A stretch of DNA of 64,000 nt from an uncultured Methanosarcinales archaeon (GTDB taxonomy: Archaea; Nanobdellota; Nanobdellia; Woesearchaeales; CAIVOO01): NCBI GenBank assembly GCA_964485195.1, contig CAZAIK010000001.1, positions 1 through 64,000 of the forward strand. Reading direction: 5' to 3'. The notes beneath the pieces are model-generated. The model saw only the letters and a program-made list of their open reading frames with translations, was not told the DNA's origin and did not search any database. Every line of letters begins with the position of its first letter. Within the stretch, counting starts at the first letter, position 1. Shown here one piece after another: positions 5,131 through 64,000 of this stretch. The position numbers were made by a program, and so were the translations under genes.

Positions 5131-5936
5131 AAAGCATAAATTTCCAAAAGCCAAAAATTGATGAGCTGAAAAAGCAGTTTACCTGCGTTGACGCCCACTG
5201 CCACACCAGTTTTTCAGACGGGGCAAGCCTCAGGAAGATTCTGGAAAAATGCAGCAGGAGAGGTATTGGTGTTTGCATCACAGACCACAACCAGGTAAAG
5301 GGCGCTGTGGAAGCCCTGAAGCAGAAAAAGGTTATGGTTGTTCCGGGAATAGAAGTCAACACCTCTGAAGGCCCTCACTTCCTGGCCTACTTCTACAGCG
5401 TCAATGAACTTAAGGATTTTTATTACAAGAACATACATTCAAAAAGATTTTTCAATATGAAAAAGTTCACCAGCATGGCAGACATTAAAATGATAGAGCT
5501 TGTGGAAAAGCTCGAAAAATATAATTGCGTGAAATGCCTGCCGCATCCTCACGCCCCTGCCTGGGGAAACATCAGCAGGCTGAAAGAAAAAAAAGAAATC
5601 CTGCGAAAAGTGGATGCAGTAGAGGTAATCTCAGGCCTGCAGACAAGAAATTCAAACAAAAAGGCCTGCGAAACCCAGATGAGACATCACAAGGCAGTTA
5701 CTGCCGGAAGCGACGCCCACGGCGTTATGGACGTGGGGAACTGCCTGACCTTGACAAAAGCATCCAATGCCGATGAATTCCTTGACGCCATAAGGAAGAA
5801 GAGAACAATCGCAGTGGGAAAGGAAAAGCTAATGCAGAAGGCAATGCAGACAACAAGATGGGTGAGGAAGGACATAAGAAGGATTAAAACTATTGTAGCC
5901 AACAAGCTCTTTTCAAGAAACGACGAGATGCCATAA
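5127..5936 (+). CDS. PHP-domain metallophosphoesterase
   Basis: DAHCHTSFSDG, ITDHN, PGIEV, PHP, GSDAH. Confidence 0.92.
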   Translation: MKSINFQKPKIDELKKQFTCVDAHCHTSFSDGASLRKILEKCSRRGIGVCITDHNQVKGAVEALKQKKVMVVPGIEVNTSEGPHFLAYFYSVNELKDFYYKNIHSKRFFNMKKFTSMADIKMIELVEKLEKYNCVKCLPHPHAPAWGNISRLKEKKEILRKVDAVEVISGLQTRNSNKKACETQMRHHKAVTAGSDAHGVMDVGNCLTLTKASNADEFLDAIRKKRTIAVGKEKLMQKAMQTTRWVRKDIRRIKTIVANKLFSRNDEMP

Positions 5937-6024
5937 GCCCCTGTAGTCCAGTCTGGACAGGATACAAGCTTGCGGAAGAACCTGCAAACAGCTTGCGGCC
6001 CGGGTTCAAATCCCGGCAGGGGCA
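5937..6024 (+). tRNA. tRNA-Arg(GCG) with 14-nt canonical intron (5976-5989)
   Basis: GCCCCTG/CAGGGGC acceptor stem; CAAGC-TT-GCG-G[intron]A-GCTTG; begins immediately after the PHP stop codon. Confidence 0.93.
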
Positions 6025-6978: not shown

Positions 6979-9768
6979 TTACTGCCCCGCCTTCCTCTGT
7001 TCCTTGTAGAAGGCTTTTACCATTGCTGATGTGCTGGCGTCTTCTGATGAGCGGTCTTCCCTCAGCCTCAGCAGCCTGGGGAATCTCAAGGCGTATCCTG
7101 AGCTATAGGTTGGCGATTTCTGTATTTCCTCGTATGTCACCTCAACAACAACTTCCGGCCTTATCCTGACTTCGTTTCCCTTTTCAGATGTTATGAGGGG
7201 CTTGAGCAGGTCAGTCAATTGCTGGAATGAAACGCCCTGCTCTTCCTTTTCCTTTATTCCTGTGCCAACCTTTCCCACTTCAAGGAACTCTCCTGTCTCC
7301 TCGTCCCTGCAGGCAAGCACGTAGCTTGACAGCCAGCCTGCCCTCTTGCCTGTTCCCCATTCAGCTCCCACTATCACCAAATCAAGCTCCTTCATTGTGG
7401 GCTTCAGCTTCACCATGAAACCCACTCTTGAGCCGGGCTTGTAAGGGGCTTCAAGCTTTTTCATCATCACTCCTTCCTGACCTATTTCAAGGGATTCCTT
7501 GTAGAACTTCTCTGCCTCTGCTTTCTTGCCAGTAACCAATTGCTTTGCCAGCACCATATCCCATTTTTTTGGATTTATTAATTTTTCAATCAATCCCCTT
7601 CTTTCCTTGAAAGGTATCTTTAGCGTGTTCTTGTCATTGTAGTAAAGTATGTCAAAGACATTCACCTCAACAGGAAATTCCTTTGCCATTCTTTCAATTT
7701 CATATTTTCTTTTTATCCTCTGGGATATGTTCTGGAAGGGCAGGTAGTTCTTAGTTTCAGGGTTGTAGCCCACAACTTCCGAGTCAAGGATGAAAACTTC
7801 ATTGGGAGTCTGCTCCCTGACAGCCTTTGCTATGTCGGGGAATTGCTTAGTAACATTCTCCAGTCTTCTTGTAAATATGCTAATCTCATTTTTATTCCTA
7901 TGTATCTGGCAGTTGTGAAGAGAGAATAATGTTGTGCAATAACTCTCATCATCTTTGATCTGGAGATTGTATAGCAGGGTTCTGGGATCTCTCCTTTTAA
8001 TCTCTTGCAGTTTTAAAAGCTTAACCAGGATATAATTTCCTTTAATTTTATAATGTTTTTTTGATTTTAACAGCATTAATTTATAATAAGTCTTCCCGCC
8101 AATCCTGAATTTTTTTAGGGCAATAACGACGCGATGTTTAAGGGCTACAAGTTGGGCAAACATTGCAAGATCTCTCTCCTTTGTTGTTATTGATGATCTT
8201 CCAAGTGAATCAGTATGACCGTCAGAATCTATCCATCCTTCCAGAAAGGCTAGAAACTGCTGCTTGGAGAGGTTATAAAACCATTCAGGGAGCATTTTGC
8301 CTTTCCATTCCCTTCTAAAAAGGGCGGAAAGCCAGATTCTCAGCGGTTTATCCCGCCAGTAGAGTGATACCTTCATTCTCTGCCTGCTCTCTGATATCTT
8401 TGTGATTTTCAGAGTTTTAGTAATGATTTTCCGGTATTTTTTAATTTTTTTTGTATGGTCTTTATTGAATACCAATCCAACCCTTTCAGTATTATGGTAC
8501 TCATTTGTGAACCCATCCCCTATCCAATAACCTAAAAATCTAAAAAAGTCCAAAGAGGGGCATATTAACTTTGAATAGTTTGAAGAATCTTTTAAATATA
8601 ATTTTTTCCCGGGTGGCTCGTCTTTAACAGTAAATGAAGGGATTGGAAAAGCTACCAAGTCTTTTTTAACAAGACTTTCAGAATTAATCCATTTTAGCTT
8701 TCCTTCCCTTTCAGTTAGGACAGCGTGGCCTTCTGAAATTCTAAACTCATTCCCTAAAAATGACTGAATATTGAATAATCTTTCCTTCTTGCCTATCTTC
8801 CTTTTATTAGTTGCAGTTACTTTTCTAAACCGACCTTTATGTGATAGAACGAGATCATTTTTTTTAATGTCTTTTATAGACAATAAACCCTTTTTATAAA
8901 CATAGATGGGGGTGTGGCCCGTAACACAACGAAACCCGTCGTATTTGTATTCTATTGCCGCCGGCTCCCCGACCCTTTCAAACCCTTCCTTCACGTCCTC
9001 AACCTTCTGGGCGAGCATTACCTTCACTGGCTTGCCCAGCACAAGCTCTATTGCCTTCACTCCTTTTTCCCCTTCTTTCTTTGCGGCCCTGGCCACCACT
9101 GAGAAATCATTTGCAGCGTCATAAGCATTCTGCACTATGTCTATGAAATAATTGTACTTGTCCCTGTTCTGCTCTGGAAATCTTATGTTGTTCTTCTTCT
9201 CTTCATATTCCAGGCCTATTTCCTCCCTGAAGAATGCCCAAACTATGGCATCCCTTATTGTCCCTTCCCCCAGCCCTACTCTCAGCTCTTCCAGCACTGT
9301 TCTTGCTATGTATCTTGCTTCCTTTGGCTTTGCGCTGGACAATAATTCAGCAACAAGCTTTATCTTCCTGTCAACACTCCCCTCCCCTTCAAGGGTTGTC
9401 AGTTTCTGTATGTTATCAAAGACCTTGGAAACTGTCAGTTCAGAGGAAAAGAGCGTTCTTTGTCTTTTCTTTGCAGCAAGCTCCTCTGCTGTGATTCCCA
9501 AATCCCCTTTTTTCCTGTAGCTTTCCTCAATGCTTTCTTTGGGGAGGCCTGTTGCTATTTCCAGTGCCTTTATCATCATCCTGGAGGCAAAGCCTATCTT
9601 CCTCTCATCCCACCTGGGGAAGGCCCTTCCCTGTATAAGCAGGATTACCTTGTCAACATCCTCTGCAGGTGTTTCCCTCAGGAATTCAGAAAGTATGTGT
9701 GTTTTCTCAAGCCTTTTGGCGGTATTCTCAAGCTTTTCATAAACTTCTGCCAGCTGTGAATATTTCAT
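6979..9768 (-). CDS. lig: ATP-dependent DNA ligase, intein-containing
   Basis: EYKYDGFR motif I, ILDSEVV, VFDIL, EGVMMK, ALRFPR. Confidence 0.97.
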   Translation of the reverse strand: MKYSQLAEVYEKLENTAKRLEKTHILSEFLRETPAEDVDKVILLIQGRAFPRWDERKIGFASRMMIKALEIATGLPKESIEESYRKKGDLGITAEELAAKKRQRTLFSSELTVSKVFDNIQKLTTLEGEGSVDRKIKLVAELLSSAKPKEARYIARTVLEELRVGLGEGTIRDAIVWAFFREEIGLEYEEKKNNIRFPEQNRDKYNYFIDIVQNAYDAANDFSVVARAAKKEGEKGVKAIELVLGKPVKVMLAQKVEDVKEGFERVGEPAAIEYKYDGFRCVTGHTPIYVYKKGLLSIKDIKKNDLVLSHKGRFRKVTATNKRKIGKKERLFNIQSFLGNEFRISEGHAVLTEREGKLKWINSESLVKKDLVAFPIPSFTVKDEPPGKKLYLKDSSNYSKLICPSLDFFRFLGYWIGDGFTNEYHNTERVGLVFNKDHTKKIKKYRKIITKTLKITKISESRQRMKVSLYWRDKPLRIWLSALFRREWKGKMLPEWFYNLSKQQFLAFLEGWIDSDGHTDSLGRSSITTKERDLAMFAQLVALKHRVVIALKKFRIGGKTYYKLMLLKSKKHYKIKGNYILVKLLKLQEIKRRDPRTLLYNLQIKDDESYCTTLFSLHNCQIHRNKNEISIFTRRLENVTKQFPDIAKAVREQTPNEVFILDSEVVGYNPETKNYLPFQNISQRIKRKYEIERMAKEFPVEVNVFDILYYNDKNTLKIPFKERRGLIEKLINPKKWDMVLAKQLVTGKKAEAEKFYKESLEIGQEGVMMKKLEAPYKPGSRVGFMVKLKPTMKELDLVIVGAEWGTGKRAGWLSSYVLACRDEETGEFLEVGKVGTGIKEKEEQGVSFQQLTDLLKPLITSEKGNEVRIRPEVVVEVTYEEIQKSPTYSSGYALRFPRLLRLREDRSSEDASTSAMVKAFYKEQRKAGQ
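7912..8928 (-). mobile_element. intein (339 aa) with LAGLIDADG endonuclease in DNA ligase
   Basis: CVTGHT...SLHN followed by Cys; FLGYWIGDG and LEGWIDSDG; removal restores KYDGFR-CQIH. Confidence 0.95.
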
Positions 9769-9802: not shown

Positions 9803-11893
9803 TTATTTTTTGGCCCGTCTTTTCGCCTTGTTTTTTCGCTTTACGGGCCTGGCGTCTGAAAGCATTTTTGCTATGGTGCACAAGTAAGTCATGGTGTTGA
9901 CATCCCTGCTGATAACATTTCGCACTATCTCCTCCTGCCCTGACCACAGGCTTATTGTCTGGGACAATCCAAGGAGTGTCAGCCCAAATTCCTCTGCCTG
10001 TTTTCTGTAAACCGCCTGCCGGTCAATGGGAATGTCAAACAATCTCTGCTGTTTCTTGCCCATTTCAATGCTGTCAATAAAACCTGTGATGGACTCTCTT
10101 ATTTCTTTCTTGCTTGTTTTTCCTGTCAGGACAGCTGTATATGCAATGTCCAGCTGCTGTTCAGGATTGAGAGGCATATCTTCTACCCTCAGGTTCTTGT
10201 TGGTGAACAGCAGAGCAGAAGAAAATGGCATCAAGCCTTCCTCCACAAGAATTTTTACTTCCCTGCAAACTTCCTTCTCATACTTCAGCTCGTTAAGCCC
10301 TGTCTGCCTGCTGATGCTCATTATTTCAATAAGGTCATCAACCCCTCCTGAATCAGCGAGGTCGTAAACCTGACTGAGAGCTCTTGCCCTTTCAGACGCA
10401 GTGAAAGGGACCTGCATATTTTCCTGCCTTTGCAGCCACAATCTCAGCTTGGGGTCAAGGTGCTGAAGCTCAATAGCTGGAATTTTCTTAAGCCCGGCGC
10501 GCCTGCAGGCTTCCAGCCTCCTGTGCCCACAGACCAGCACATAATCATTGTCTGTTTTTTCAACAAGCACAGGGTTGAGCAATCTTCCGTCCCTCTTGAT
10601 TGCTGTGGCAAGGTCCTCAATCTCTTCCTCAGTGACAGGGCCTCTCGGGTTTTTGGGGTCAGGATAAATTGTGCCTATGTTCACTTTTTTTGTCCTGTTT
10701 TTCCTGTTGATTACTGATACAGGAGCCCTTTCATCCTCCTCTATTGCCCTCAAGGAGTCTCCTATGGTGTCATAACGCACTCCCTTCCCGTTCACAACAC
10801 CTCTGTTATTAAAATCATCCATATAAGTTGTGTGCTTTCTTACTTCCTCGCCAAGAGCTGACATCTCGGCAAGGAACCTTTCCACCTTCTCTTCCAGCAC
10901 TGACTGTATGTGGCCTGCGTACTCCTCGTCCAGGCTGCACAGTTTCAGATATCTGTAAACCTCGTTTTTTGCAGTCCTTGCAAAACCCCTTTTCTCCAGG
11001 ATGTGGGGCCTGTAATTTTTTTCAATCGCGCCTGTTGAGAAAAAATCATAATCATCTTTTTCATTTGAATTGACTGCCCTTATCATATGTAAAAGCCCGT
11101 GTTTCTGGGCAATTTCAGGCTCAGCATCTGCAATTTGAAAAACCCTTGACCTGACTTTCTTTTTCAGGCTTTCAAATGATGCCTTTCCGTGCTTTAGTGC
11201 AAATTCATACTGCTCTTCCTTGCTGGGAATCCAGGACAGCAGCACTGCTTTCTCATAGCTCATGTCGCCTGACTCAACAAGCCTCTTGACCTGTCTTGAG
11301 CACCTCCCGACATATCTCATGGCATCCCTGACAGTGTTTTCAGAATGGCTTACATATGCGCTGAGCTCTTTTATTGTTATGCCTGGCCTGCCGTCTATCC
11401 CCCTCTCCCTGTTTTCAAAGTGATACGCATTAACAATTTCTTCTGCCTTTCTCCAGGGTGTCAATGCCAGCTGGCTGTCTTCATCAATCTGCACAAGACG
11501 CCTTTCCAGAAGGCTGAGGTTATTCTTAAGGACATCTACTTCCATTTCCCTGAAAGGCACGTTTTTAGCGGCAAGAAAGCGCCTGTGCCCCACAACAAGA
11601 AAGTAATAGTTTTCGTCGTCTCTCATACCTTCAAGAACCGCCTGCTTATCGCTCTCATCAACATCTTCAAGATTGCCAATGTAATTCCTTATCTCGCTGC
11701 CGGCTTTAATCTCCACAAGAGGGTAAGTGAACTGACCGTAGGCCTTGAGGGACTCTGTGAGGTCCTGAATTTTATTATGCTCAATTTTTCGTCTCGGCTG
11801 TCCTATGTCCGGAACAACCTTATTGATGTCAACAATGCTTCTTTCAGAAGAAAGATTTATCTTGTCTACAAGTCCGCTCATCAACCTCCCCAT
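9803..11893 (-). CDS. protein with two tandem ParB/Spo0J-like modules
   Basis: PDIGQPRR...LVVGHRRFLAA + HTH, then PDPKNPRG...LLNPVLV...LVCGHRRLEA...QEN + HTH. Confidence 0.85.
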   Translation of the reverse strand: MGRLMSGLVDKINLSSERSIVDINKVVPDIGQPRRKIEHNKIQDLTESLKAYGQFTYPLVEIKAGSEIRNYIGNLEDVDESDKQAVLEGMRDDENYYFLVVGHRRFLAAKNVPFREMEVDVLKNNLSLLERRLVQIDEDSQLALTPWRKAEEIVNAYHFENRERGIDGRPGITIKELSAYVSHSENTVRDAMRYVGRCSRQVKRLVESGDMSYEKAVLLSWIPSKEEQYEFALKHGKASFESLKKKVRSRVFQIADAEPEIAQKHGLLHMIRAVNSNEKDDYDFFSTGAIEKNYRPHILEKRGFARTAKNEVYRYLKLCSLDEEYAGHIQSVLEEKVERFLAEMSALGEEVRKHTTYMDDFNNRGVVNGKGVRYDTIGDSLRAIEEDERAPVSVINRKNRTKKVNIGTIYPDPKNPRGPVTEEEIEDLATAIKRDGRLLNPVLVEKTDNDYVLVCGHRRLEACRRAGLKKIPAIELQHLDPKLRLWLQRQENMQVPFTASERARALSQVYDLADSGGVDDLIEIMSISRQTGLNELKYEKEVCREVKILVEEGLMPFSSALLFTNKNLRVEDMPLNPEQQLDIAYTAVLTGKTSKKEIRESITGFIDSIEMGKKQQRLFDIPIDRQAVYRKQAEEFGLTLLGLSQTISLWSGQEEIVRNVISRDVNTMTYLCTIAKMLSDARPVKRKNKAKRRAKK

Positions 11894-12916: not shown

Positions 12917-13996
12917 TTACCTTATGATTTCTATGCCAAGGTCCTTGTTGACCTCGACCTGCTGGGGGCTTGGCTGGCCGCCTGTCTGCTTTCCCAAAAT
13001 CCACGGAGACTGCACTCCTGTGATTATGGTCATGACAGTTATCCTGCCTTTCATGTCATCCTGAACTCTTGCTCCCCAGATGACGTTGGAGTCTGCGTCC
13101 ATTGACTCTGTCACGAGCTCTCCAATCCTGTTGATGTCGTCCAGGGTCATGTCAGGGCCTCCTGCTACGTGGATGATCGCTCCGATTGCCCCTTCATAAT
13201 TTATGTCAAGCAGTGGATTTGCAAGAGCCCCTCTTACTGCCTCTTCTACCCGATTTGTGGTGTCCGAGCTTCCTACTCCTATTGCCGCAACCCCTCCGTT
13301 GCTCATTATCGCCTTGACATCTGCATAGTCAAGGTTTACCAGAGAGGGTATTGCTATTGTCTCTACTATTCCCTTAATCATTGTTGAAATCAGCTCGTTT
13401 GCAACTGCAAATGCCTGCGTTACTGGCAGGTTTCCTGCAATCTGAACAAGCCTGTTGTTGTCTATTACTATGACTGTGTCTGAAACCTTCCTTAATTGTT
13501 CAAGGCCGAATTCTGCCTTGTCTATTCTTGCCCTTTCAATCTTGAAAGGCATTGTCACTGTGCCTATTACTATGGAGCCGACGTCCTTGGCAAGCTGGGC
13601 AATTATCGGGGAGGCTCCTGTTCCTGTTCCTCCGCCCATCCCTGCGCACACAAACACCATGTCGGCCTCTTTTAGTGATTCCTTTAGCTGCTGAAGTGAT
13701 TCCTTTGCTGCTTCTAATCCTCTTTCAGGGTAGCCTCCGCAGCCAAGCCCTTTTGTGACATTTCTTCCCAAAAGAAATTTTCTGTCTGCTTCTGTTATCT
13801 GCAAGTGTTGCTGGTCTGTGTTTACTGCAACAATTTCAGCTCCCTTTATTCCTTTTTTGTAGAGCCAGTTGACCATATTGTTGCCTGCTCCGCCAACACC
13901 AATTACTTTTATGTTGGCCTGGCCTGTGCTCATTCCTTCAAGTTCTGTATCCTGTGTTTCCTGTTGTTTCAATGCGTTTTGTACTAAAAAATCCAT
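12917..13996 (-). CDS. ftsZ: cell division protein FtsZ
   Basis: GVGGAGNN, GMGGGTGTG, VNLDYADV; ATG at 13996 preceded by GGAGG. Confidence 0.98.
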   Translation of the reverse strand: MDFLVQNALKQQETQDTELEGMSTGQANIKVIGVGGAGNNMVNWLYKKGIKGAEIVAVNTDQQHLQITEADRKFLLGRNVTKGLGCGGYPERGLEAAKESLQQLKESLKEADMVFVCAGMGGGTGTGASPIIAQLAKDVGSIVIGTVTMPFKIERARIDKAEFGLEQLRKVSDTVIVIDNNRLVQIAGNLPVTQAFAVANELISTMIKGIVETIAIPSLVNLDYADVKAIMSNGGVAAIGVGSSDTTNRVEEAVRGALANPLLDINYEGAIGAIIHVAGGPDMTLDDINRIGELVTESMDADSNVIWGARVQDDMKGRITVMTIITGVQSPWILGKQTGGQPSPQQVEVNKDLGIEIIR

Positions 13997-14114
13997 TTTT
14001 CTGCCTCCCCCAATTTTTTTCTTTTGGGATTTTTTTAATAGTTTGAATGGAAGTATAGCTGAACTTAGCGAAACATTTATATAGTAGTTCACACTATATC
14101 CTACTTAGAAACAG

Positions 14115-14179
14115 ATATTCGCGCCAACGAATGTTTGTTTGTGTTCGCCAAAACACACTTTGAGTTCGCCAAAACTCAA
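14115..14179. repeat. three tandem stem-loops with identical CGCCAA loops
   Basis: ATTCG-CGCCAA-CGAAT; TGTGTT-CGCCAA-AACACA; TTGAGTT-CGCCAA-AACTCAA. Confidence 0.85.
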
Positions 14180-14328
14180 TTATTTTTCTATATATATAAC
14201 ATATCTACTATTTAAACACTTCTGTAAAACAACCTATATTTTTTAGTATACACTTATGTATACTGGGATATTAAAATGATTATTTACTGTGGAGTAGTTT
14301 TATAAGCTATTTCTAATGCCTTTTTGAT

Positions 14329-15363
14329 ATGAAAAACAGCAGCCAAGCATTCAGGAACAGGCAGAGGGCACAGGACCTGGCCCAGTTTGAGATTCCCAAA
14401 AAAATGAAGAGAAATGAACCGGTTCCTGATTATTTTGCCCATTTTAAGAGCATAAAGAGAATTTCGCCTGTGAACCTTAAAAGGCACCATGAGCTTTTGA
14501 AACTCTGCTCAAGAGACAGGAGCAAGCTTGAAGGGATGTATCTTGCATTAATCGCCGCGCAGAATGAGGAAGTCAAGGAAAGAGCTCATTATAACAGGCC
14601 CCAAAGGGAAGCATTAATCGAGCAATGCTCAGGATTCATTTCTGACAGAAGAATTCTTCTTTTTGGTATGAATGAAAACCTTGGGGGCAAGGTTACAGCT
14701 TACGATGAGTATGAAGATGTTTTGAAAGATAAGAATGAATATGATCTTGTCCTGGTTGGAAACCTTGTTGATGTCTATAAAAGCCTGCCCTGCATTGTTT
14801 TTGAAAGAATGCTCAGGGAAGACTTTCAGAAAGGGCAGGAAAACTATGAATTTCGGGAAGGCGCAATACAGAAAGCAAGGGATTTGCTTCAAAAGGAGAG
14901 AGGTGCGATGGAGGAGGCGATAATCGGGAAGCTTGAGGATTTATTCATAGAGTCAGCAGTGCAAAAATTTGATTATTTTTATCCTGACCTCGCAGGAGAA
15001 GCGCACCAGGAAAAGGTTGACAGGGTAAAGGGCTTGATTCCGTGGAGGATTGCATTCGCTGAAAATGCAAGAGAATATGTTAAAGCGAATTTTGAAATAA
15101 TGTGCCGTAATAAGTTTCCGGAACTGTTCGGGCACATACTGCCTGACGTGATAGCGCAGATAGAAGCTGAAAATCCTGTGGATGTTTTTTATGAAAGACT
15201 AAACAAGAAAGGAATGATTATTTTTGCCGCGAGTTCTGCCGGATATGAAAAGCCCGAAGAGGATGAGCAGTTGATTGACACAGGGGAACTCCTTGATTTT
15301 GTCGGGGAAAAAAGGATAGGCAGGGCACATTACGCCGCACTAACACCAAGGTTTAAAAAATAA
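14329..15363 (+). CDS. hypothetical protein
   Basis: 344-aa ORF, no motif recognised. Confidence 0.75.
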   Translation: MKNSSQAFRNRQRAQDLAQFEIPKKMKRNEPVPDYFAHFKSIKRISPVNLKRHHELLKLCSRDRSKLEGMYLALIAAQNEEVKERAHYNRPQREALIEQCSGFISDRRILLFGMNENLGGKVTAYDEYEDVLKDKNEYDLVLVGNLVDVYKSLPCIVFERMLREDFQKGQENYEFREGAIQKARDLLQKERGAMEEAIIGKLEDLFIESAVQKFDYFYPDLAGEAHQEKVDRVKGLIPWRIAFAENAREYVKANFEIMCRNKFPELFGHILPDVIAQIEAENPVDVFYERLNKKGMIIFAASSAGYEKPEEDEQLIDTGELLDFVGEKRIGRAHYAALTPRFKK

Positions 15364-15381: not shown

Positions 15382-16179
15382 ATGACACTAAGCATAATCG
15401 GAATCGGGCTGAATGATGAAAAAGACATCACAATAAAAGGCCTTGAATTTGTTAAACAGTCTGATGTTGTTTATCTGGAAAATTACACTTCTGTTTTGAA
15501 TTGCGATGTTTCTGCATTGGAGGTGTTTTATGGCAAAAAGATAATTTTAGCCGACAGAAATTTAGTTGAGAAAAAAGCAGAGGAAACAATATTAAAGGAT
15601 GCAAAAGAGAAAAATGTTTCTTTACTGGTGGTGGGTGATGCTCTCTCTGCAACAACCCATATCGACCTGGTAAAGAGAGCCAGGGGACTGGGAATAAAAG
15701 TTAACATCGTTCACAACGCTTCAATATTGACAGCTGTATCTGAAACAGGACTGCAGCTGTATAAGTTCGGAAAGACTACAAGCATACCCTTCCCGGAGAA
15801 AAATTACAAACCAGAAACAGCATACTATGTCATTAAAGATAACCTCTCCCTGGGATTGCATACTCTGGTTTTATTGGACTTAAGACCGCAAGAAAACAAG
15901 TTTATGTCCATTAGTGACGCTATTAATGTTTTATTGGATATAGAGAAAAAAAGAAAAGGAAAAGTAATCACAGAAGAAACCTTGGCAATTGGCTGCGCAA
16001 GACTGGGAAGCGAAAATTCAGTTATCAAAAAAGGAAAAATAAAAGAATTAAAAGGATTTGATTTCGGAAAGCCTGTCCACTGCTTGATAATTCCGGGCAA
16101 GATGCATTTTGCCGAGGAGGAATTCCTGCAGGAAGATCACCCTTCTGTGACGCAGGCGTCGTTCTCGCAATCGCAGTAG
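15382..16179 (+). CDS. dph5: diphthine synthase
   Basis: YLENYTS, GDALSATTH, GLQLYKFG, GLHTLVLLD. Confidence 0.96.
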   Translation: MTLSIIGIGLNDEKDITIKGLEFVKQSDVVYLENYTSVLNCDVSALEVFYGKKIILADRNLVEKKAEETILKDAKEKNVSLLVVGDALSATTHIDLVKRARGLGIKVNIVHNASILTAVSETGLQLYKFGKTTSIPFPEKNYKPETAYYVIKDNLSLGLHTLVLLDLRPQENKFMSISDAINVLLDIEKKRKGKVITEETLAIGCARLGSENSVIKKGKIKELKGFDFGKPVHCLIIPGKMHFAEEEFLQEDHPSVTQASFSQSQ

Positions 16180-16697
16180 TGCTTCTCTGAAAAGGCCCTG
16201 TCATCTGAAGAGCAGTAAAATTCCAGAAGGGTGTCGCTGTCCCTGCATTGGTCCTCGTGAACCGCAAGGTCATTTGTTATGACCCTTCCAGCCACTTCAT
16301 AATTAAGGCCGCCATCTGTGTCGTTGCAATCAGCGTATTTTACGCATCTGCCGTCCCTGCAAAACTCTGTGTCCGAGCACTCATCTATGATTCCCTGTTT
16401 GGCGTCCTCTTCGCACCTTGCCTCCGGAGTTCCGGGATTGATGCATTCCCAGTCGTAAATGTCACCGACGGGATTTGTCTGGAAGCAATAGGCATTCTCC
16501 ACCCTTCTCTCCCCGCAGTCAGAATCAGAAAAACACGCAATGTCAGCTTCAGGCTCCTGCTGCTCCTGCATTTCAGGTTCTGAAACAGCCGTGTCAGCCC
16601 CTTCCATTGTTTCCTGTTCATCAGAAACTATTTCTTCAGGAGCACAGGCTATCAACAAGAAAATAGCTAAAACTGAAAACAGCATTATTCTATGCAT
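16137..16697 (-). CDS. secreted/lipoprotein-like Cys-rich protein
   Basis: Signal with LIAC lipobox-like end; CNDTDGG...G...DQC...LLEFYC module. Confidence 0.8.
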   Translation of the reverse strand: MHRIMLFSVLAIFLLIACAPEEIVSDEQETMEGADTAVSEPEMQEQQEPEADIACFSDSDCGERRVENAYCFQTNPVGDIYDWECINPGTPEARCEEDAKQGIIDECSDTEFCRDGRCVKYADCNDTDGGLNYEVAGRVITNDLAVHEDQCRDSDTLLEFYCSSDDRAFSEKHYCDCENDACVTEG

Positions 16698-17527
16698 TTT
16701 CCTTCCTGGCAATAACAGGTGTGCGTCTCGTGCTGGCATCTGTTATCAGCGCAATACCACTCCCAAATCTCATTGGATTCAAGGCATATATCATCCACGT
16801 TGTTGCCCAGATCGTCAGTGCAGGTCCCTTTTACAGCGTACTCAACTCCGCCGTCTGTGTCCTGGCAGGTGCTGTCAGAGCCGGAATCCTGATTGTCAGA
16901 ACCGGAATCATCATCATTTGAAGAGCTTCCAGGGTTTGTATAGACAGTGGAGCCAGATGAAGCCTGTGTGCCCTGCACACTCAAGGACTGCTCCTCAACA
17001 TTGTTATCTTCATTCTCCTCCTCGTAAGCGTTCAGCGGGTCCAGGGTTAAAACCGCTTCATACTGGCCTTCATCCAGGGAGAAAGCCTTTGTTATCCTGC
17101 CTGTTGAAGAGCCGCTGGCAAGGTTTTCCCTGTAACCGTAATACTCTATTTCGGCAACATCATTGCCTTCCATGAATTTTATGCTGTATTCAAAATCCTC
17201 AATGTCCTCTGATCCCGAATTCTTAATCTTGAAAGAGATTTCAAATTCCTCATAGGGCTCTGGATAAATCGTGCTCAAGAAGAAATTTGTGATAGTCAAG
17301 TCAGCGCCTGTTTCCACGCTTTCGTCAGGTTCTTCCTGTTCCTCTTCAGGAGCTGTTTCATTTTGCTCTGCTTCAGCAGGGCTTTCTGCCTGACCTGATG
17401 TTTCAACATCCGGACCAGAAATCTCAGGTTCCGTGTCTGCTTCAACCTGAACTACTCTTACGCCCTCATCAACACAGCCGATGAGGAATGCCAACGCAAC
17501 AAGTATGATTATTATTTTCAAACGCAT
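16685..17527 (-). CDS. secreted/lipoprotein-like protein with CARDB-like domain and Cys-rich module
   Basis: LIGC; ADLTIT...IKNSG...LDPLNAYEEENEDNN; CQDTDGG...G...DIC...WEWYC. Confidence 0.82.
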   Translation of the reverse strand: MRLKIIIILVALAFLIGCVDEGVRVVQVEADTEPEISGPDVETSGQAESPAEAEQNETAPEEEQEEPDESVETGADLTITNFFLSTIYPEPYEEFEISFKIKNSGSEDIEDFEYSIKFMEGNDVAEIEYYGYRENLASGSSTGRITKAFSLDEGQYEAVLTLDPLNAYEEENEDNNVEEQSLSVQGTQASSGSTVYTNPGSSSNDDDSGSDNQDSGSDSTCQDTDGGVEYAVKGTCTDDLGNNVDDICLESNEIWEWYCADNRCQHETHTCYCQEGKCIE

Positions 17528-17880
17528 TTTCCTTCTGAACATTCGCACCTGAAATTCTGGTTTGCAATCTCTCCCTCTTCACAATAATACTCCACAAGAA
17601 AAGGCCCGAAGCATTTGTCCATCCTTCTCATCCCCTCTACCCTCACTGTTCCTTTCACTTCCTTGTTCAGCCCGTTGTCAGAATCCTCACAATTTGCCAC
17701 CACTGCAGTTTCTTCCGCACTCCCTGTTCCCTCATTTAACACTCCCGATGCCTTGCCCTCAACAGGAAGCTCTGGAGTTTTCACAGAACAGCCGGTGAAT
17801 GTTAATGAAAGTACAAGGGCTATTCCCAGCAGGACCAATACCCAGACAAAGAGGAAATTCCTTTGGATGTGGTTAAACAT
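17518..17880 (-). CDS. secreted/lipoprotein-like Cys-rich protein
   Basis: FTGC; CEDSDNG...G...DKC...VEYYC. Confidence 0.8.
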   Translation of the reverse strand: MFNHIQRNFLFVWVLVLLGIALVLSLTFTGCSVKTPELPVEGKASGVLNEGTGSAEETAVVANCEDSDNGLNKEVKGTVRVEGMRRMDKCFGPFLVEYYCEEGEIANQNFRCECSEGKCV

Positions 17881-17964: not shown

Positions 17965-18052
17965 AGCCCCGTGGTGTAGTGGCCAAGCATTCAGGCCTTT
18001 GGAAGCAAACTAAGGACAGCCTGAGACCGCGGTTCAAATCCGCGCGGGGCTA
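17965..18052 (+). tRNA. tRNA-Gln(TTG) with 15-nt canonical intron (18003-18017)
   Basis: AGCCCCG/CGGGGCT acceptor stem; CAGGC-CT-TTG-G[intron]A-GCCTG. Confidence 0.94.
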
Positions 18053-59875: not shown

Positions 59876-60258
59876 AATATCACCTCTTTAGTTTTTGTTT
59901 CTCAGAGCGCCCCGCCTGAGGGCGCTTGCGGGGGAGGAGGCGCTCTGGAAGCAAGAAGGCAGCTAAATCCTTCATATGCAACATATGAAGGGAGGTGTTT
60001 ATATTTGCCACTTTACCCCCTGTCCAGTGCCAGTGAGAAATTGCTATTCTGAAGGTTTTTGGGCAGGCAAAAAACCTGCCCTAGATATCTGACCAGAGTC
60101 TGTGTTTTCCTGTTTTACCACCTCCTTTTTCCTTTTAAAGACCCTCGCTATCTTCATAATAAACAACTAAATGTGATTTTATTAATCTGTTATGAAGAAT
60201 TGTTCTGCACTGCAGATACATTCATTGTTACCTTAAAGGGTGCTAAGAGCATAAAAAA

Positions 60259-60402
60259 TTAATTCTTCTTTTTCTTTGGTTTATCCCAATAAGCAGATTT
60301 GCATTTTGGGCATAAGATTGGATACTCTTTTTTTCTAGGAATCCATTCATGTTTGCAACGTTCACATTTGTATCCTTTTACTTGTATCTTTATTTCAGCC
60401 AT
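60259..60402 (-). CDS. small zinc-ribbon protein (47 aa, not in ORF track)
   Basis: YKCERCKHEWIPR...CPKCKSAYWD. Confidence 0.8.
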   Translation of the reverse strand: MAEIKIQVKGYKCERCKHEWIPRKKEYPILCPKCKSAYWDKPKKKKN

Positions 60403-60464
60403 ATAACTTTTTAGAACTTTATTCTTTAGTAAGATTTGAAAAGCTTTTGGATTATCCTTGGAAT

Positions 60465-61022
60465 TTATTTAGCATTTTTATCAACAATTAGTTTAATTTT
60501 TAGCATTTTACTAACTAAATTTTCAAATGATAATTTTACTAAAGAATCCTCGCTTATTTCACCTATATTATGAGCATTACCAATAACAATTGGTGGGATT
60601 ACAATGCATCCCATAGATAATAAAAAATCCAATAGTGTATTTAATGTTTGGATTTTACCATTCCCACCAAATCTTCCTATACAAACAACACCAACAATTT
60701 TATCTTCAAAATTTTTATTATTAATTAATAAAGATGATGTTCTTTCAATAAAACTTTTTACTTTTGATGGAACATCTAACCTATAGACAGGAGTTGCTAT
60801 TATTACCTTATTGAAATTATTTATTTTTTCTATAAGCTCTTCAAATTGATCTTTTATTTTACATTTCCCAATCTTATTACACTCCCCACATCCTTCACAG
60901 GGTTGAATATCATAATCAGATAAATTTATGATCTCACAATTGTTTTTTGGGATAGTACTTAGCAGAATGTAACAATTTCCTTTTCTCGGACTGCAGTTTA
61001 TAGCTAGAATCTTATTTTCCAT
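60465..61022 (-). CDS. iron-sulfur flavoprotein / flavodoxin-like
   Basis: SPRKGN, CEGCGECNKIGKC, ATPVY. Confidence 0.9.
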   Translation of the reverse strand: MENKILAINCSPRKGNCYILLSTIPKNNCEIINLSDYDIQPCEGCGECNKIGKCKIKDQFEELIEKINNFNKVIIATPVYRLDVPSKVKSFIERTSSLLINNKNFEDKIVGVVCIGRFGGNGKIQTLNTLLDFLLSMGCIVIPPIVIGNAHNIGEISEDSLVKLSFENLVSKMLKIKLIVDKNAK

Positions 61023-62022
61023 TTTCAATCACCAAATTACAAAAATTATTCTTAAAAATGCCTCCATTACAAGTATTAAATGCTTTACAGCCTCCTCGAC
61101 AGAGTTTATTAAACTTACAGGTTTTGCATTTCCTTTTTAATAAACTGATATCAAAACATCGATTGTATGAAAAAGATTTTTTAGAATTCCATACTTTTAA
61201 TAAATCATGACATTTGATATTTCCTTCAACATACCTATCAGGCAAAGCTAAACAACCTTTGATATCCCCATTATAACTAATTGAAAAATGAGTTAAACCA
61301 GCTGTACAACCAAACCATTTGTTGAGTCTTGTATTTTTATCAGCTTTTGAGAAATAACCCATTGAATCTCCAACAGAAATAATAAATTTATTTTCATTTT
61401 TTTTAGATATCCATTTACATAAATTATATACTTCTTTGGGTAAAAGAAGAAATTCTTTTTTCATTCTTCCTTCAAAATATCCTATTTGAATTCTCCAAGA
61501 AAAAATGTTTCTAGAACGGAGAATATCATAAAGATCATCCAAAGATTGGAAAGAATAGTTTTGCTTTATTATTGTAGAGATTATGCTTACATTAAATCCT
61601 TCTTTTAAAAGCCAATCAATATTTTTAAGCACTATTTTGAATTTTGCTCCTTTTCTTACTTTATTATGGTATTCCTCATTACCATCTAAACTCACTGAAA
61701 TATTTAAAGGATCTATAACTTTTAATTTAGCTATTATGTCTTTATTAAGGATTGTACCATTAGTAATCAAAAATATTTCTATCCCCTTTTCTTTAATTTC
61801 CTTAAGAATTGTAAACCAATCTTCTCGCAAAAAAACTTCTCCACCTAAAATATTAACCACTTTTATTTCAAGTTTTGATAGTTTTTTGCTTAAATTTAAA
61901 GAACTATCTAAGTCTAACTCATCATTTAGTTTACTATCTGCATTTGAGCCACAATAAATACATTGACCATTACACTTCCGAGTTAATTCCCAAGCTACTG
62001 AAAACGGTTTACCGTTTATCAT
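61012..62022 (-). CDS. radical SAM protein with SPASM domain
   Basis: CNGQCIYC, GGE, TNG, SLDG, CTAG...GDIKGC, CKTC...CRGGC...C; ATG 62022 preferred over TTG 62106. Confidence 0.92.
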   Translation of the reverse strand: MINGKPFSVAWELTRKCNGQCIYCGSNADSKLNDELDLDSSLNLSKKLSKLEIKVVNILGGEVFLREDWFTILKEIKEKGIEIFLITNGTILNKDIIAKLKVIDPLNISVSLDGNEEYHNKVRKGAKFKIVLKNIDWLLKEGFNVSIISTIIKQNYSFQSLDDLYDILRSRNIFSWRIQIGYFEGRMKKEFLLLPKEVYNLCKWISKKNENKFIISVGDSMGYFSKADKNTRLNKWFGCTAGLTHFSISYNGDIKGCLALPDRYVEGNIKCHDLLKVWNSKKSFSYNRCFDISLLKRKCKTCKFNKLCRGGCKAFNTCNGGIFKNNFCNLVIENGK

Positions 62023-62026
62023 TAAA

Positions 62027-62173
62027 TTAAACAAATGGATTATTGTTTTGGGAATACTCTTTAAGCATAGCAAGTAGTTTCTTTGCTCTATTGTCTTGTG
62101 GCTCAAAGAGTTTTTCAGACTCTATACTTGCACAGTATACTAATCCAAATCCGTAAGTTATGGCTTTGTTCAT
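62027..62173 (-). CDS. 48-aa ORF, candidate substrate peptide (not in ORF track)
   Basis: MNKAITYGFGLVYCASIESEKLFEPQDNRAKKLLAMLKEYSQNNNPFV; AAGGT SD; stops 4 nt before the rSAM ATG. Confidence 0.5.
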   Translation of the reverse strand: MNKAITYGFGLVYCASIESEKLFEPQDNRAKKLLAMLKEYSQNNNPFV

Positions 62174-62267
62174 ATTACCTTTTTAGCCATTAGATTATTT
62201 AAAATTTATTATCAATATTTTTACAAAAGGGCAAAATTTATATACTATTTATGACATATTGTATAAT

Positions 62268-63233
62268 ATGGTTAAAATAGATAAATTGGACAGAAAAATC
62301 ATGGCTGAACTTGATATGAATGCAAGAATTCCAATTACTCAATTAGCCAAAGCTGTAAGATCATCAAGAGAAGTTGTAAACTATAGAATAAAAACACTAA
62401 TAAAAAGAGGAATAATATCTGGAACTCAAACTTTTTTTAATCCAGCTAAAGTTGGATACAGTATTTATCGAGTTTTAGTAAGATTAGATTCATTAGACGA
62501 AGGAATTATTAATAGGTTTCAAAATTTTTTTATTAAGCACGATTCTGTGATGTGGTTTGCAAAGCTTGGAGGGAAATGGGATTATGTAATTGAATTTTTT
62601 GCAAAAAGTGGTGATGAATTTAATACCCTTTTGAAGAATTCATTTGAACAATTTGGAAGTTTGATTAAATTATATGAGATTATGACTATCCTAGAAATCT
62701 ATTCACACAATAGAAAATACATTTATGATAATAAAAAACATAAAATTTTTAAAATTGGTGGAAGAATTGAAAATATCAAATTAGACGAAGTTGATAAAAA
62801 TATAATCAAACAATTGAAAGATAATGCTCGTTTAACAAATCTAGAAATTGGCGAAAAACTAAAATTAGCAAGAAATACAATTAAATACCATATTAAAAAA
62901 TTAGAAGAGAATAGAGTAATTCAAGGATACAAGTTATTCTATCACCCTCAAAGAATAGGTTATCAATCATATAAATTATTAATTTCTATGGATAATCTGA
63001 ATCAAATAATGGAGAAAAAATTTTTTATATTTGCTCAACAAAACAAAAATATTATTTTTGCACATAAAAACTTGGGAAAATGGAATTATGAATTTGAAAT
63101 TGAAATCGAAGACATGATAAAATTACAAGAGATTATTATAGAACTTAGAGTGATATTTAAAGAAAATGTAATTGATTATGAATTATTCCCAATTTTACAT
63201 GATTATAGAATTAATTTATTCCCCTACCTTTGA
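62268..63233 (+). CDS. tandem Lrp/AsnC transcriptional regulator
   Basis: Two HTH+RAM units (LD..D..I...L..NAR...; GKWDY / GKWNY). Confidence 0.92.
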   Translation: MVKIDKLDRKIMAELDMNARIPITQLAKAVRSSREVVNYRIKTLIKRGIISGTQTFFNPAKVGYSIYRVLVRLDSLDEGIINRFQNFFIKHDSVMWFAKLGGKWDYVIEFFAKSGDEFNTLLKNSFEQFGSLIKLYEIMTILEIYSHNRKYIYDNKKHKIFKIGGRIENIKLDEVDKNIIKQLKDNARLTNLEIGEKLKLARNTIKYHIKKLEENRVIQGYKLFYHPQRIGYQSYKLLISMDNLNQIMEKKFFIFAQQNKNIIFAHKNLGKWNYEFEIEIEDMIKLQEIIIELRVIFKENVIDYELFPILHDYRINLFPYL

Positions 63234-63343
63234 ATTTCTATGGATTTTCTTTACCACTCTATTTTGAGAAGAAACTAGCACCCGCTAAAGTAACAATGAA
63301 GCAGATACATAACTTTTATAAAGGCAAATCCTGGATAGATGAT

Positions 63344-63973
63344 ATGGTATTTAACAGTCCACAATGGTTCAATATAGTTTCAACATTTTATCATCTTATT
63401 TCTTTCCTGGTTGCTGGTGCAATAACCTTGCTTGGCTATAAAGCTTATAAACTGATGAAGTCAAAGAAATACCTTAATTTCGCGCTGGCCTTCTTTTTCA
63501 TCACTCTCTCATTCATAGTGCTTGCAATTACAAACATTCTTGTTTACTTCAACCTGGGAACCGAAATCTTCAGGATTTTTTCCATAATCAATATTGGGTT
63601 CATAATATACGCGCTGCTGACAATAGCAGGTTTTTTCCTGCTTGTGATGCTGACATTTAAGGTAAAGGATGTGAAGATAATAGCAATACTGGCTGTTGGA
63701 ATGATCGCTGCGCTGGCTTTACTCCCATTCATAAAGACATTTCATACAATCCTGCTAGCGCTGACTTTGCTGCTTTCATACTGCTTTTACGAAAACTGCA
63801 AAAGAAAAAAAACTGTGAACTCAAAACTTGTGTTTTCTGCGTTTATCCTGATGATGACATCTCACATTTTCAGCCTGGCAAGCGGAGCTAATGAGCTGAT
63901 ATTTATCATAGGGAACACTGTTCTTGTTATAGGCTACACCTTGCTGTTAATAACTATCCTGAGGTTTAAATGA
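63344..63973 (+). CDS. polytopic membrane protein (~7 TM)
   Basis: Repeated hydrophobic helices; TATA at ~63314 supports ATG 63344. Confidence 0.8.
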   Translation: MVFNSPQWFNIVSTFYHLISFLVAGAITLLGYKAYKLMKSKKYLNFALAFFFITLSFIVLAITNILVYFNLGTEIFRIFSIINIGFIIYALLTIAGFFLLVMLTFKVKDVKIIAILAVGMIAALALLPFIKTFHTILLALTLLLSYCFYENCKRKKTVNSKLVFSAFILMMTSHIFSLASGANELIFIIGNTVLVIGYTLLLITILRFK

Positions 63974-64000
63974 GTGAAAGGAGGAGCAAGCTTGAGATTG

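Follow-up and report, generated by a model that had tools for sequence, protein, structure and literature searches.

The DNA considered here is a 64,000-nt stretch (positions 1 to 64,000 of contig CAZAIK010000001.1, assembly GCA_964485195.1), hereafter the window, whose source organism is a Woesearchaeota-type DPANN archaeon. It carries ftsZ on the minus strand and, between ftsZ and a divergently oriented open reading frame (ORF) of 344 aa, an array of three hairpins. These have stems of different sequence and share a six-base loop, CGCCAA on the plus strand and UUGGCG on the ftsZ-sense strand. Two converging promoters, P1 directed toward ftsZ and P2 directed away from it, flank the array. The array is a conserved element before ftsZ in at least 54 of the 81 Woesearchaeota-type sources compared here, and no prior description of it was found in the literature searched. 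We propose that it specifies a short antisense RNA that may pair, loop to loop, with the 5' end of a long ftsZ leader.

A sequence-only reading of the window had listed three perfect CGCCAA-loop hairpins at 14117-14179, and these are present exactly as described (Table 1). Hairpin 1 extends to 13 pairs (14109-14140) if two plus-strand G.U pairs are allowed. The window holds no excess of the hexamer itself (24 copies over the two strands versus 21.5 expected), and a stem of at least 5 bp flanks only three of the 24 copies, namely those of the array (stems of 5, 6, and 7 bp). CGCCAA/TTGGCG is also the sole loop seen three times among the 206 six-base-loop hairpins of the window. The plus-strand RNA from 14106 to 14188 folds into the three hairpins with an energy of -23.0 kcal/mol (z = -4.7; 0 of 200 shuffles as good), versus -18.1 kcal/mol (z = -1.2) for the complementary minus-strand RNA. 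A chance origin of the hairpins was considered; the count of the hexamer and that of a 10-mer with one mismatch are both at expectation, and it is the stems, their clustering, and their conservation that rule chance out.

Other assignments were tried and set aside. Two hairpins with GTGGAA loops, at 5502 and 35002, are unrelated sequences. A scan of the whole window at Rfam gathering thresholds returned four tRNAs only, and a permissive scan of 13950-14350 gave no family at E <=2, with two chance long non-coding RNA hits at E >=2.1. The array is also not supported as a replication origin: the GC skew tracks gene orientation without a switch near 14 kb, and no other support for an origin was found.

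The comparative sample comprises 81 ftsZ-upstream regions, that of the window and those of the best 80 of at least 553 confirmed ftsZ loci in GTDB species genomes. The ftsZ genes of these 80 relatives show 74-86% identity to FtsZ of the window, and their labels are nearly all Woesearchaeota or Nanoarchaeota. The upstream regions are 330 nt each (25,582 nt in total over the 81 sources), and each relative locus covers approximately 5 kb on either side of ftsZ; these loci, plus the one 64-kb window, were scanned without alignment. Perfect TTGGCG-loop hairpins occur in 54 of the 81 sources (none in 27, one in 20, two in 22, and three in 12). The upstream regions hold 149 copies of TTGGCG on the ftsZ strand, 100 of them with a perfect stem of at least 4 bp and 90 with one of at least 5 bp, and a single copy of CGCCAA on that strand; among the 207 perfect six-base-loop hairpins found there, 90 carry the TTGGCG loop. 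The loops begin 86-274 nt before the ftsZ ATG (median approximately 190), with TTGGCG always on the ftsZ-sense strand. A search for the same stem-CGCCAA-stem arrangement elsewhere, suggested by the sequence-only reading, was run on the remaining 718,332 nt of the loci and the window. It found 311 copies of either hexamer and only two weak hits, each with a 4-bp stem, and none with a stem of 5 bp or more.

Sources that lack TTGGCG hairpins often hold hairpins with related loops at the same place. These loops read TGGTA (L029), TTGGAAG (L057), CTGGACA (L073), TGGTTAG (L076), GGGC (twice in L080), and TGGCTAG (L020), and their shared core reads UGG in the sense RNA and CCA in its antisense counterpart. 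L025, L051, and L060 each hold two TTGGCG hairpins alongside a degenerate one that reads TTGGCA and a further, unrelated hairpin with a GTACGA loop (judged by eye). In three loci devoid of TTGGCG hairpins (L007, L013, and L014) a different conserved sequence, TGGTCTCCAA, stands at the equivalent place, approximately 150-180 nt before ftsZ; in L013 it sits in a hairpin loop, CTGGTCTC. This sequence may be a divergent form of the array element.

The stems were assessed in an ungapped alignment of the full set of 149 TTGGCG copies, each with 10 nt of flank at either end and taken irrespective of whether a stem is present. In this alignment an 8-pair helix is 74.5% paired versus 43.8% in column shuffles, the covariation score is 0.685 versus 0.182, and 401 cells are changed on both sides versus 161.5; none of 500 shuffles reached any of these values, and slid controls are 38-50% paired. 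RNAalifold, applied to 12 full arrays with no structure supplied, recovered the first and last hairpins with compensatory changes in 12 of 13 pairs, and missed the middle hairpin owing to misaligned variable spacers. The relatives' upstream regions thus bear out the earlier suggestion, made from one genome, that the structure is under selection. Neither a duplex-DNA operator nor chance repeats can explain flanks that vary yet stay complementary around a fixed loop.

An RNA of either strand of the array would be able to form the hairpins, and the mismatches help to distinguish the two. Among single mismatches embedded in otherwise Watson-Crick helices (from position 2 on), A.C on the ftsZ strand, equivalent to G.U on the antisense RNA, occurs 34 times, and G.T, equivalent to G.U on the sense RNA, six times. 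This asymmetry departs from a 1:1 expectation (p = 8e-6) and from the composition ratio of 43:25 obtained from non-helical cells (p = 0.002); at the closing position, five T.G pairs favor the sense strand instead. Across 42 loci the z-score of the antisense RNA is the lower one (-2.93 versus -1.47, and lower in 39 of the 42), a difference that partly reflects composition. Selection is therefore somewhat clearer on the plus-strand (antisense) RNA, and the wobble asymmetry favors the strand that had been nominated for a small RNA (sRNA).

The strict consensus for the B recognition element (BRE) and TATA box, GAAANNTTTAWATA, is found at nine sites in the window. It is predictive of promoters in this genome, because six of the seven sites other than P1 and P2 stand 22-26 nt before the ATG of an ORF; this spacing suggests leaderless genes, and such sites place starts approximately 23 nt after the TATA box. 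The remaining two sites, P1 and P2, flank the hairpins and face each other. Both promoters had been proposed from the one sequence, and both motifs are there: the P2 core, GAAACATTTATATA (14070-14083, plus strand), agrees at 13 of 14 positions with the promoter of the tRNA gene at 858, GAAACATTTATAAA, and P1, AGAAGTGTTTAAATA (14223-14209, minus strand), places the complementary hairpins in the predicted ftsZ leader. The predicted P1 start lies approximately 7 nt before the first hairpin on the minus strand. The predicted P2 start, near 14106-14108, falls inside the CTTAGAA box, and the aligned 5' ends of the antisense RNAs predicted from the 12 full arrays read YTAGAA. Oligo-T termination is established in archaea, and the T-tract that had been noted after the hairpins is a run of five T; a plus-strand RNA of approximately 80 nt ending there, as the sequence-only reading envisaged, would fit this anatomy.

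A variable inverted repeat surrounds the BRE/TATA core of P2 (GATATAGTGTGAACT ... AGTTCAGCTATAC at 14040-14103 of the window), with equivalents in 61 loci. The repeat is weak, its longest perfect match averaging 5.4 versus 4.6 in shuffles (duplex energy p = 0.003), and it could form a hairpin in the ftsZ leader that holds the P2 sequence in its loop.

Promoters in the relatives were counted among the 53 array-bearing sources having at least 250 nt. Of these, 47 have a sense-oriented match to the consensus, with at most two mismatches, upstream of the array, and 46 have an antisense-oriented promoter on its ftsZ side. The distance from the TTCTAAG box to the TATA box of the antisense promoter is 26-27 nt in 31 of 35 loci. 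The first loop begins 34-51 nt after the P1 TATA box in most loci, which puts the first hairpin within a few nucleotides of the predicted start. The two promoters therefore not only fit the strict consensus of the genome but are kept in relatives at fixed positions around the array. A promoter nearer to ftsZ was considered and rejected, as a sense-oriented consensus lies between the array and the ATG in just eight of the 53 sources. Even in sources where perfect hairpins are lacking, the sense promoter lies 124-306 nt upstream of the ATG. The ftsZ leader thus seems to be long as a rule, and the ftsZ promoter is most likely P1, with a predicted mRNA leader of approximately 190 nt. A conserved terminator after the array in the ftsZ direction was also rejected, because the T-run before the TTCTAAG box varies from two to six (by eye).

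Table 1. Features of the ftsZ-upstream region; positions are those of the window.
Feature	Position	Strand	Description
ftsZ	12917..13996	-	359 aa, start MDFLVQ; Pfam Tubulin/FtsZ GTPase domain 4e-48, FtsZ_C 6.5e-30
Predicted ftsZ leader	13997..14187	-	~190 nt; first ~80 nt would hold the UUGGCG-loop hairpins
Shine-Dalgarno-like GGGGGAGG	14004..14011	-	7 nt before ftsZ ATG; GGGGG-type boxes in nearly all loci
P2	14069..14083	+	BRE/TATA consensus CGAAACATTTATATA; points away from ftsZ into the hairpins; predicted antisense-RNA promoter
CTTAGAA box (TTCTAAG on ftsZ strand)	14104..14110	+	predicted antisense start region, 22-25 nt after P2 TATA
Predicted antisense RNA	14106..14188	+	~80 nt, three CGCCAA loops; fold z -4.7, wobble asymmetry; putative transcript
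Hairpin 1	14109..14140	+	perfect core ATTCG-CGCCAA-CGAAT at 14117-14132, 5 bp; loop 14122-14127
Hairpin 2	14140..14157	+	TGTGTT-CGCCAA-AACACA, 6 bp; loop 14146-14151
Hairpin 3	14160..14179	+	TTGAGTT-CGCCAA-AACTCAA, 7 bp; loop 14167-14172
T5 tract	14183..14187	+	predicted antisense 3' end; coincides with predicted P1 start
P1	14223-14209	-	BRE/TATA consensus AGAAGTGTTTAAATA; points toward ftsZ; predicted start ~14186-14188
344-aa ORF	14329-15363	+	divergent neighbor of ftsZ; array lies between them

The sequence-only reading had offered an sRNA and a structured ftsZ 5' untranslated region (UTR) as alternatives. The evidence suggests both transcripts, overlapping one another, an arrangement that corresponds to its option of an antisense regulator of ftsZ. 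Our best reading, to which we assign a probability of roughly 0.5, is that an RNA of approximately 80 nt kisses the 5' end of the long ftsZ leader and thereby tunes the ftsZ message. P1 would drive an ftsZ mRNA whose leader, approximately 190 nt long, folds at its 5' end into hairpins with UUGGCG loops, and P2 would drive a non-coding antisense RNA (~14107-14187) with CGCCAA loops that ends at the T5 tract, on the P1 start site. The antisense RNA would kiss the nascent or free leader at up to three UUGGCG/CGCCAA loops, and these contacts would proceed to an extended duplex. The duplex would lower or otherwise tune how much ftsZ message survives or is completed, possibly through its own decay or processing, and polymerases converging approximately 80 bp apart may add transcriptional interference. 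Loop-loop recognition is proposed because the sense loop, UUGGCG, contains the YUNR (U-turn) motif, which UUGG fits, and because the same loop pair is used by the kissing RNAs of plasmids. We infer from these features the transcription of both strands, the pairing of the RNAs, and an effect on FtsZ output.

Several points weigh against this reading. Both transcripts are predictions, and their raw minimum free energies are equal in 42 loci (means of -25.5 and -25.1 kcal/mol). The array and P2 are only moderately associated (Fisher p = 0.016): 46 sources have both, seven have the array only, 14 have P2 only, and nine have neither, and several of the P2-only loci show variant loops or imperfect stems. 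No clear stem surrounds 34 of the 149 TTGGCG copies. The exclusivity of the element to ftsZ rests on the best 80 of at least 553 relatives and on flanks of approximately 5 kb. The antisense RNA would end approximately 170 nt before the ribosome-binding site (RBS), and CGCC, the pseudoknot partner for the loop bases GGCG, is found downstream of the array in just one of the 54 sources; a ColIb-P9-type pseudoknot was rejected on this count, and the output step of the plasmid systems cannot apply. Finally, the invariance of the loop across 54 sources needs a further cause, because a cis-antisense pair is complementary whatever its sequence. Candidate causes are the kinetics of the U-turn, combined with a core rich in G+C within a genome rich in A+T, cross-kissing of non-cognate hairpins, and a shared trans factor. 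In some genomes several hairpins have apparently changed their loop jointly (L080, with GGGC twice, and also L073 and L076), which hints at a common trans partner. This pattern is not uniform, as L025, L051, and L060 mix TTGGCG with TTGGCA.

If a trans partner exists, it could be a dedicated RNA-binding protein that recognizes the loops, either on a plus-strand sRNA serving as a sponge or scaffold or in the ftsZ leader, with the antisense arrangement being secondary. We regard this as a serious but rather doubtful alternative. For the sponge, an option of the sequence-only reading, no positive evidence emerged. It would be consistent with a loop that is invariant across the 54 sources, identical in all hairpins of a genome, and apparently changed jointly in some genomes, with the stemless copies and the tandem unstructured ones of locus L024, and with a hairpin number and spacing that vary as they do in CsrB/RsmZ-type sponges. 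However, no candidate protein was found, no search for a partner protein having been made, and the neighboring 344-aa ORF has no Pfam family and is absent from the 80 loci; moreover, known RNA-RNA kissing systems already account for the exact loop pair, and a protein site would not need fixed converging promoters. In a more speculative form, which we consider a long shot, one trans factor would read all the loops and the array would serve as a sensor rather than as a self-contained antisense pair, most boldly through pairing of the UGGN loops of the leader with the NCCA end of uncharged tRNA or through NCCA loops of the antisense RNA as decoys for a CCA-recognizing factor. Such a sensor, if real, would link FtsZ synthesis to how translation is faring in these tiny archaea, which depend on a host. 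The hint for it is that variant loops retain UGG/CCA as the adjacent base changes, at times jointly in several hairpins of a genome. The sequence-only reading had noted a resemblance of the loop to a tRNA NCCA end, which is still speculative. The narrower proposal that the loops pair with or mimic tRNA 3' ends, with UGGN of the leader pairing to NCCA as in a T-box or with NCCA decoys on the antisense RNA, draws on the variant loops, which keep UGG/CCA while the next base varies (TGGTA, TTGGAAG, CTGGACA, TGGTTAG, GGGC, and TGGCTAG). The YUNR U-turn likewise requires UGG, the CCA is internal to the loop rather than at a 3' end, and the array shows neither the specifier nor the antiterminator of a T-box nor any Rfam match to one; the chance of this proposal being right appears slighter still.

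Kissing between two transcripts also has to be weighed against readings in which only one RNA, or none, is of consequence. One strand alone might matter, either as a structured ftsZ 5' UTR with a silent P2 or as a plus-strand sRNA with other targets, ftsZ then having a nearer promoter. The wobble asymmetry does favor one strand, as do the z-scores of the window (-4.7 for the plus strand versus -1.2 for the minus strand), and eight of the 53 array-bearing sources have a second sense consensus promoter between the array and the ATG. Still, both promoters are conserved with a fixed geometry, the strict consensus is highly predictive (six of the seven other sites precede an ATG), and the two strands do not differ in raw folding energy across 42 loci, all of which makes a single functional strand improbable. 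It is more improbable again that the TTGGCG repeats act in DNA, as an operator for a transcription factor on P1 and/or P2, possibly as extruded cruciforms. The placement of the motif between two promoters, the stemless copies, and a separate conserved palindrome nearby (14245-14264) would suit an operator, but it would leave unexplained the variable complementary flanks (74.5% versus 43.8% paired, 0 of 500 shuffles), the strand-specific G.U pattern, and the single orientation of all 149 copies.

The genes around the array vary among the loci. The upstream neighbor is a divergent diphthine synthase gene in some and a nitroreductase gene in the same direction in others; the array stays with ftsZ whichever neighbor is present, and the context is chromosomal. 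In the window, the gene next after the 344-aa ORF belongs to the TP_methylase family and is read as diphthine synthase (dph5). The 344-aa ORF itself was rejected as a partner of the array, having neither a Pfam family nor relatives at the 80 ftsZ loci. It appears to be a lineage-specific insertion that separates ftsZ from the diphthine synthase gene, and its ATG is preceded, at approximately 24 nt, by a TATA-like sequence, TTTTATAA. A perfect palindrome, AGTATACA-CTTA-TGTATACT (14245-14264), is located between P1 and the divergent genes, and similar GTATAC..GTATAC palindromes occur at the same place in L001, L006, L007, L008, L014, and L067 (by eye). A DNA-binding protein that regulates the divergent promoters may use the palindrome as its operator. 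Two genes from ftsZ, the minus strand at 9803-11893 encodes a protein of 696 aa that has the N-terminal domain of ParB (3.3e-20) and matches the ParB helix-turn-helix weakly.

Other features of the window lie apart from this region. A 929-aa ORF (6979-9768, minus strand) has ends that look like an ATP-dependent DNA ligase and a middle that looks like an intein with a homing-endonuclease motif, judging from the translation only. Rfam finds four tRNAs in the window and ARAGORN three. Three tRNAs (858-948, 5937-6024, and 17965-18052) are 88-91 nt long, which suggests that they contain introns, and the tRNA promoters at 43 and 858 share the post-TATA motif TTTC(T/C)AA(G/A)(A/G)GTTTTT. Three adjacent minus-strand ORFs of 200, 287, and 120 aa (16137-17880) each combine a hydrophobic N-terminus with acidic stretches of low complexity and a C-terminal part rich in cysteine, and may encode secreted or surface proteins. 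The G+C content of 60001-64000 is 0.29-0.30 versus approximately 0.42 in the rest of the window, and this segment could be foreign or intergenic-rich DNA.

To our knowledge, almost nothing is known about regulation, cell division included, in uncultivated DPANN archaea. The array is a sharply defined cis element on a central division gene, and it predicts two transcripts with defined ends and a pairing that depends on the loops. Its motif is also a simple marker for the module in metagenomes and metatranscriptomes.

The closest parallels are the antisense systems that control plasmid replication. According to excerpts of the cited articles, the target hairpins of pMU720, R1, and ColIb-P9 all have the loop 5'-TTGGCG-3' (PMC3753616), and YUNR U-turns are general in recognition loops (PMC4485353). 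The array resembles R1 CopA/CopT, ColIb-P9 Inc RNA and the repZ leader, and RNAI of pMU720 (IncB) in that a short antisense RNA would arise from a promoter within the leader region of the controlled gene. It also shares with them complementary sense and antisense hairpins with a UUGGCG target loop, a CGCCAA antisense loop, and the YUNR motif (PMC3753616, PMC4485353, both in excerpt). The loop pair with its YUNR motif is present in the array, and the antisense promoter inside the leader, with predicted convergent overlapping transcripts, is recognizable there at the level of sequence. The array lacks the plasmid-type block of an RBS, of a leader peptide, or of an activating pseudoknot. It further differs in having archaeal BRE/TATA promoters and a chromosomal location, in controlling (on our proposal) ftsZ rather than a replication initiator, and in having one to three hairpins all with the same loop; its stems are mostly perfect, whereas the upper stems of CopA/CopT are bulged. 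Homology to the plasmid RNAs finds no support in Rfam, with no match in the window or in 13950-14350, and the context is chromosomal (ftsZ, dph5, and nitroreductase genes).

Related loops are found beyond this group. RNA1, which controls the copy number of the Staphylococcus aureus plasmid pSA564, has a hairpin with a CGCCAA loop, the loop being proposed to kiss the 5' UTR of the mRNA and the hairpin being followed by a U-tract (PMC8129170, in excerpt). It differs from the array in being bacterial and plasmid-borne, in having two stem-loops of which one carries the CGCCAA loop, and in pairing close to the RBS. In Pelargonium line pattern virus (PLPV), the CGCCAA loop of a 3' enhancer pairs with UUGGCG loops near the 5' end, as shown by disruptive and compensatory mutants; the loop fits the wider YGCCA consensus (YGCCA/UGGCR) for kissing by tombusvirid 3' cap-independent translation enhancers (PMC4820102, in excerpt). 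The apical loop pair is identical to that of the array, but in PLPV the kissing is intramolecular within a plant-virus RNA and promotes translation, and the partners are not a sense/antisense pair.

Antisense control of FtsZ level, as proposed for the array, has a bacterial counterpart in the Escherichia coli RNAs StfZ (cis-antisense) and DicF (trans), both of which target ftsZ mRNA. The region immediately upstream of ftsZ gives rise to StfZ, in the opposite direction; this RNA is 366-552 nt long and covers the RBS and start codon of ftsZ (PMC9628754, in excerpt). StfZ is bacterial and is without repeated invariant-loop hairpins, and the antisense RNA predicted here (14106-14188) stops short of both the Shine-Dalgarno-like sequence (14004-14011) and the ATG (13996). 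CsrB/RsmZ-type sponge RNAs consist of several hairpins that present one short invariant loop motif, the GGA bound by CsrA/RsmA, on variable stems, and their hairpin number and spacing vary. The array likewise displays one invariant loop on variable stems; its loops are CGCCAA/UUGGCG rather than A(N)GGA, we know of no CsrA/RsmA-type protein in archaea, and no search for a partner protein was made. T-box leaders have a stem I with a specifier and a UGGN bulge that pairs with tRNA NCCA in an antiterminator/terminator switch; with them the array shares the UGG core only, its hairpins being simple stem-loops with no Rfam T-box match.

Judged by its sequence, the array thus appears to act in the manner of the kissing-loop antisense systems of plasmids, with which it has the exact loop pair in common, yet it is not a member of those families. 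If our reading is correct, this would be the first kissing-loop antisense controller of an archaeal division gene found in the literature searched, and the UUGGCG/CGCCAA U-turn kissing loop would have independent origins in the plasmids of bacteria, the RNA viruses of plants, and the chromosomes of archaea. Such independent origins would argue that this loop pair is a physical optimum for fast RNA-RNA recognition.

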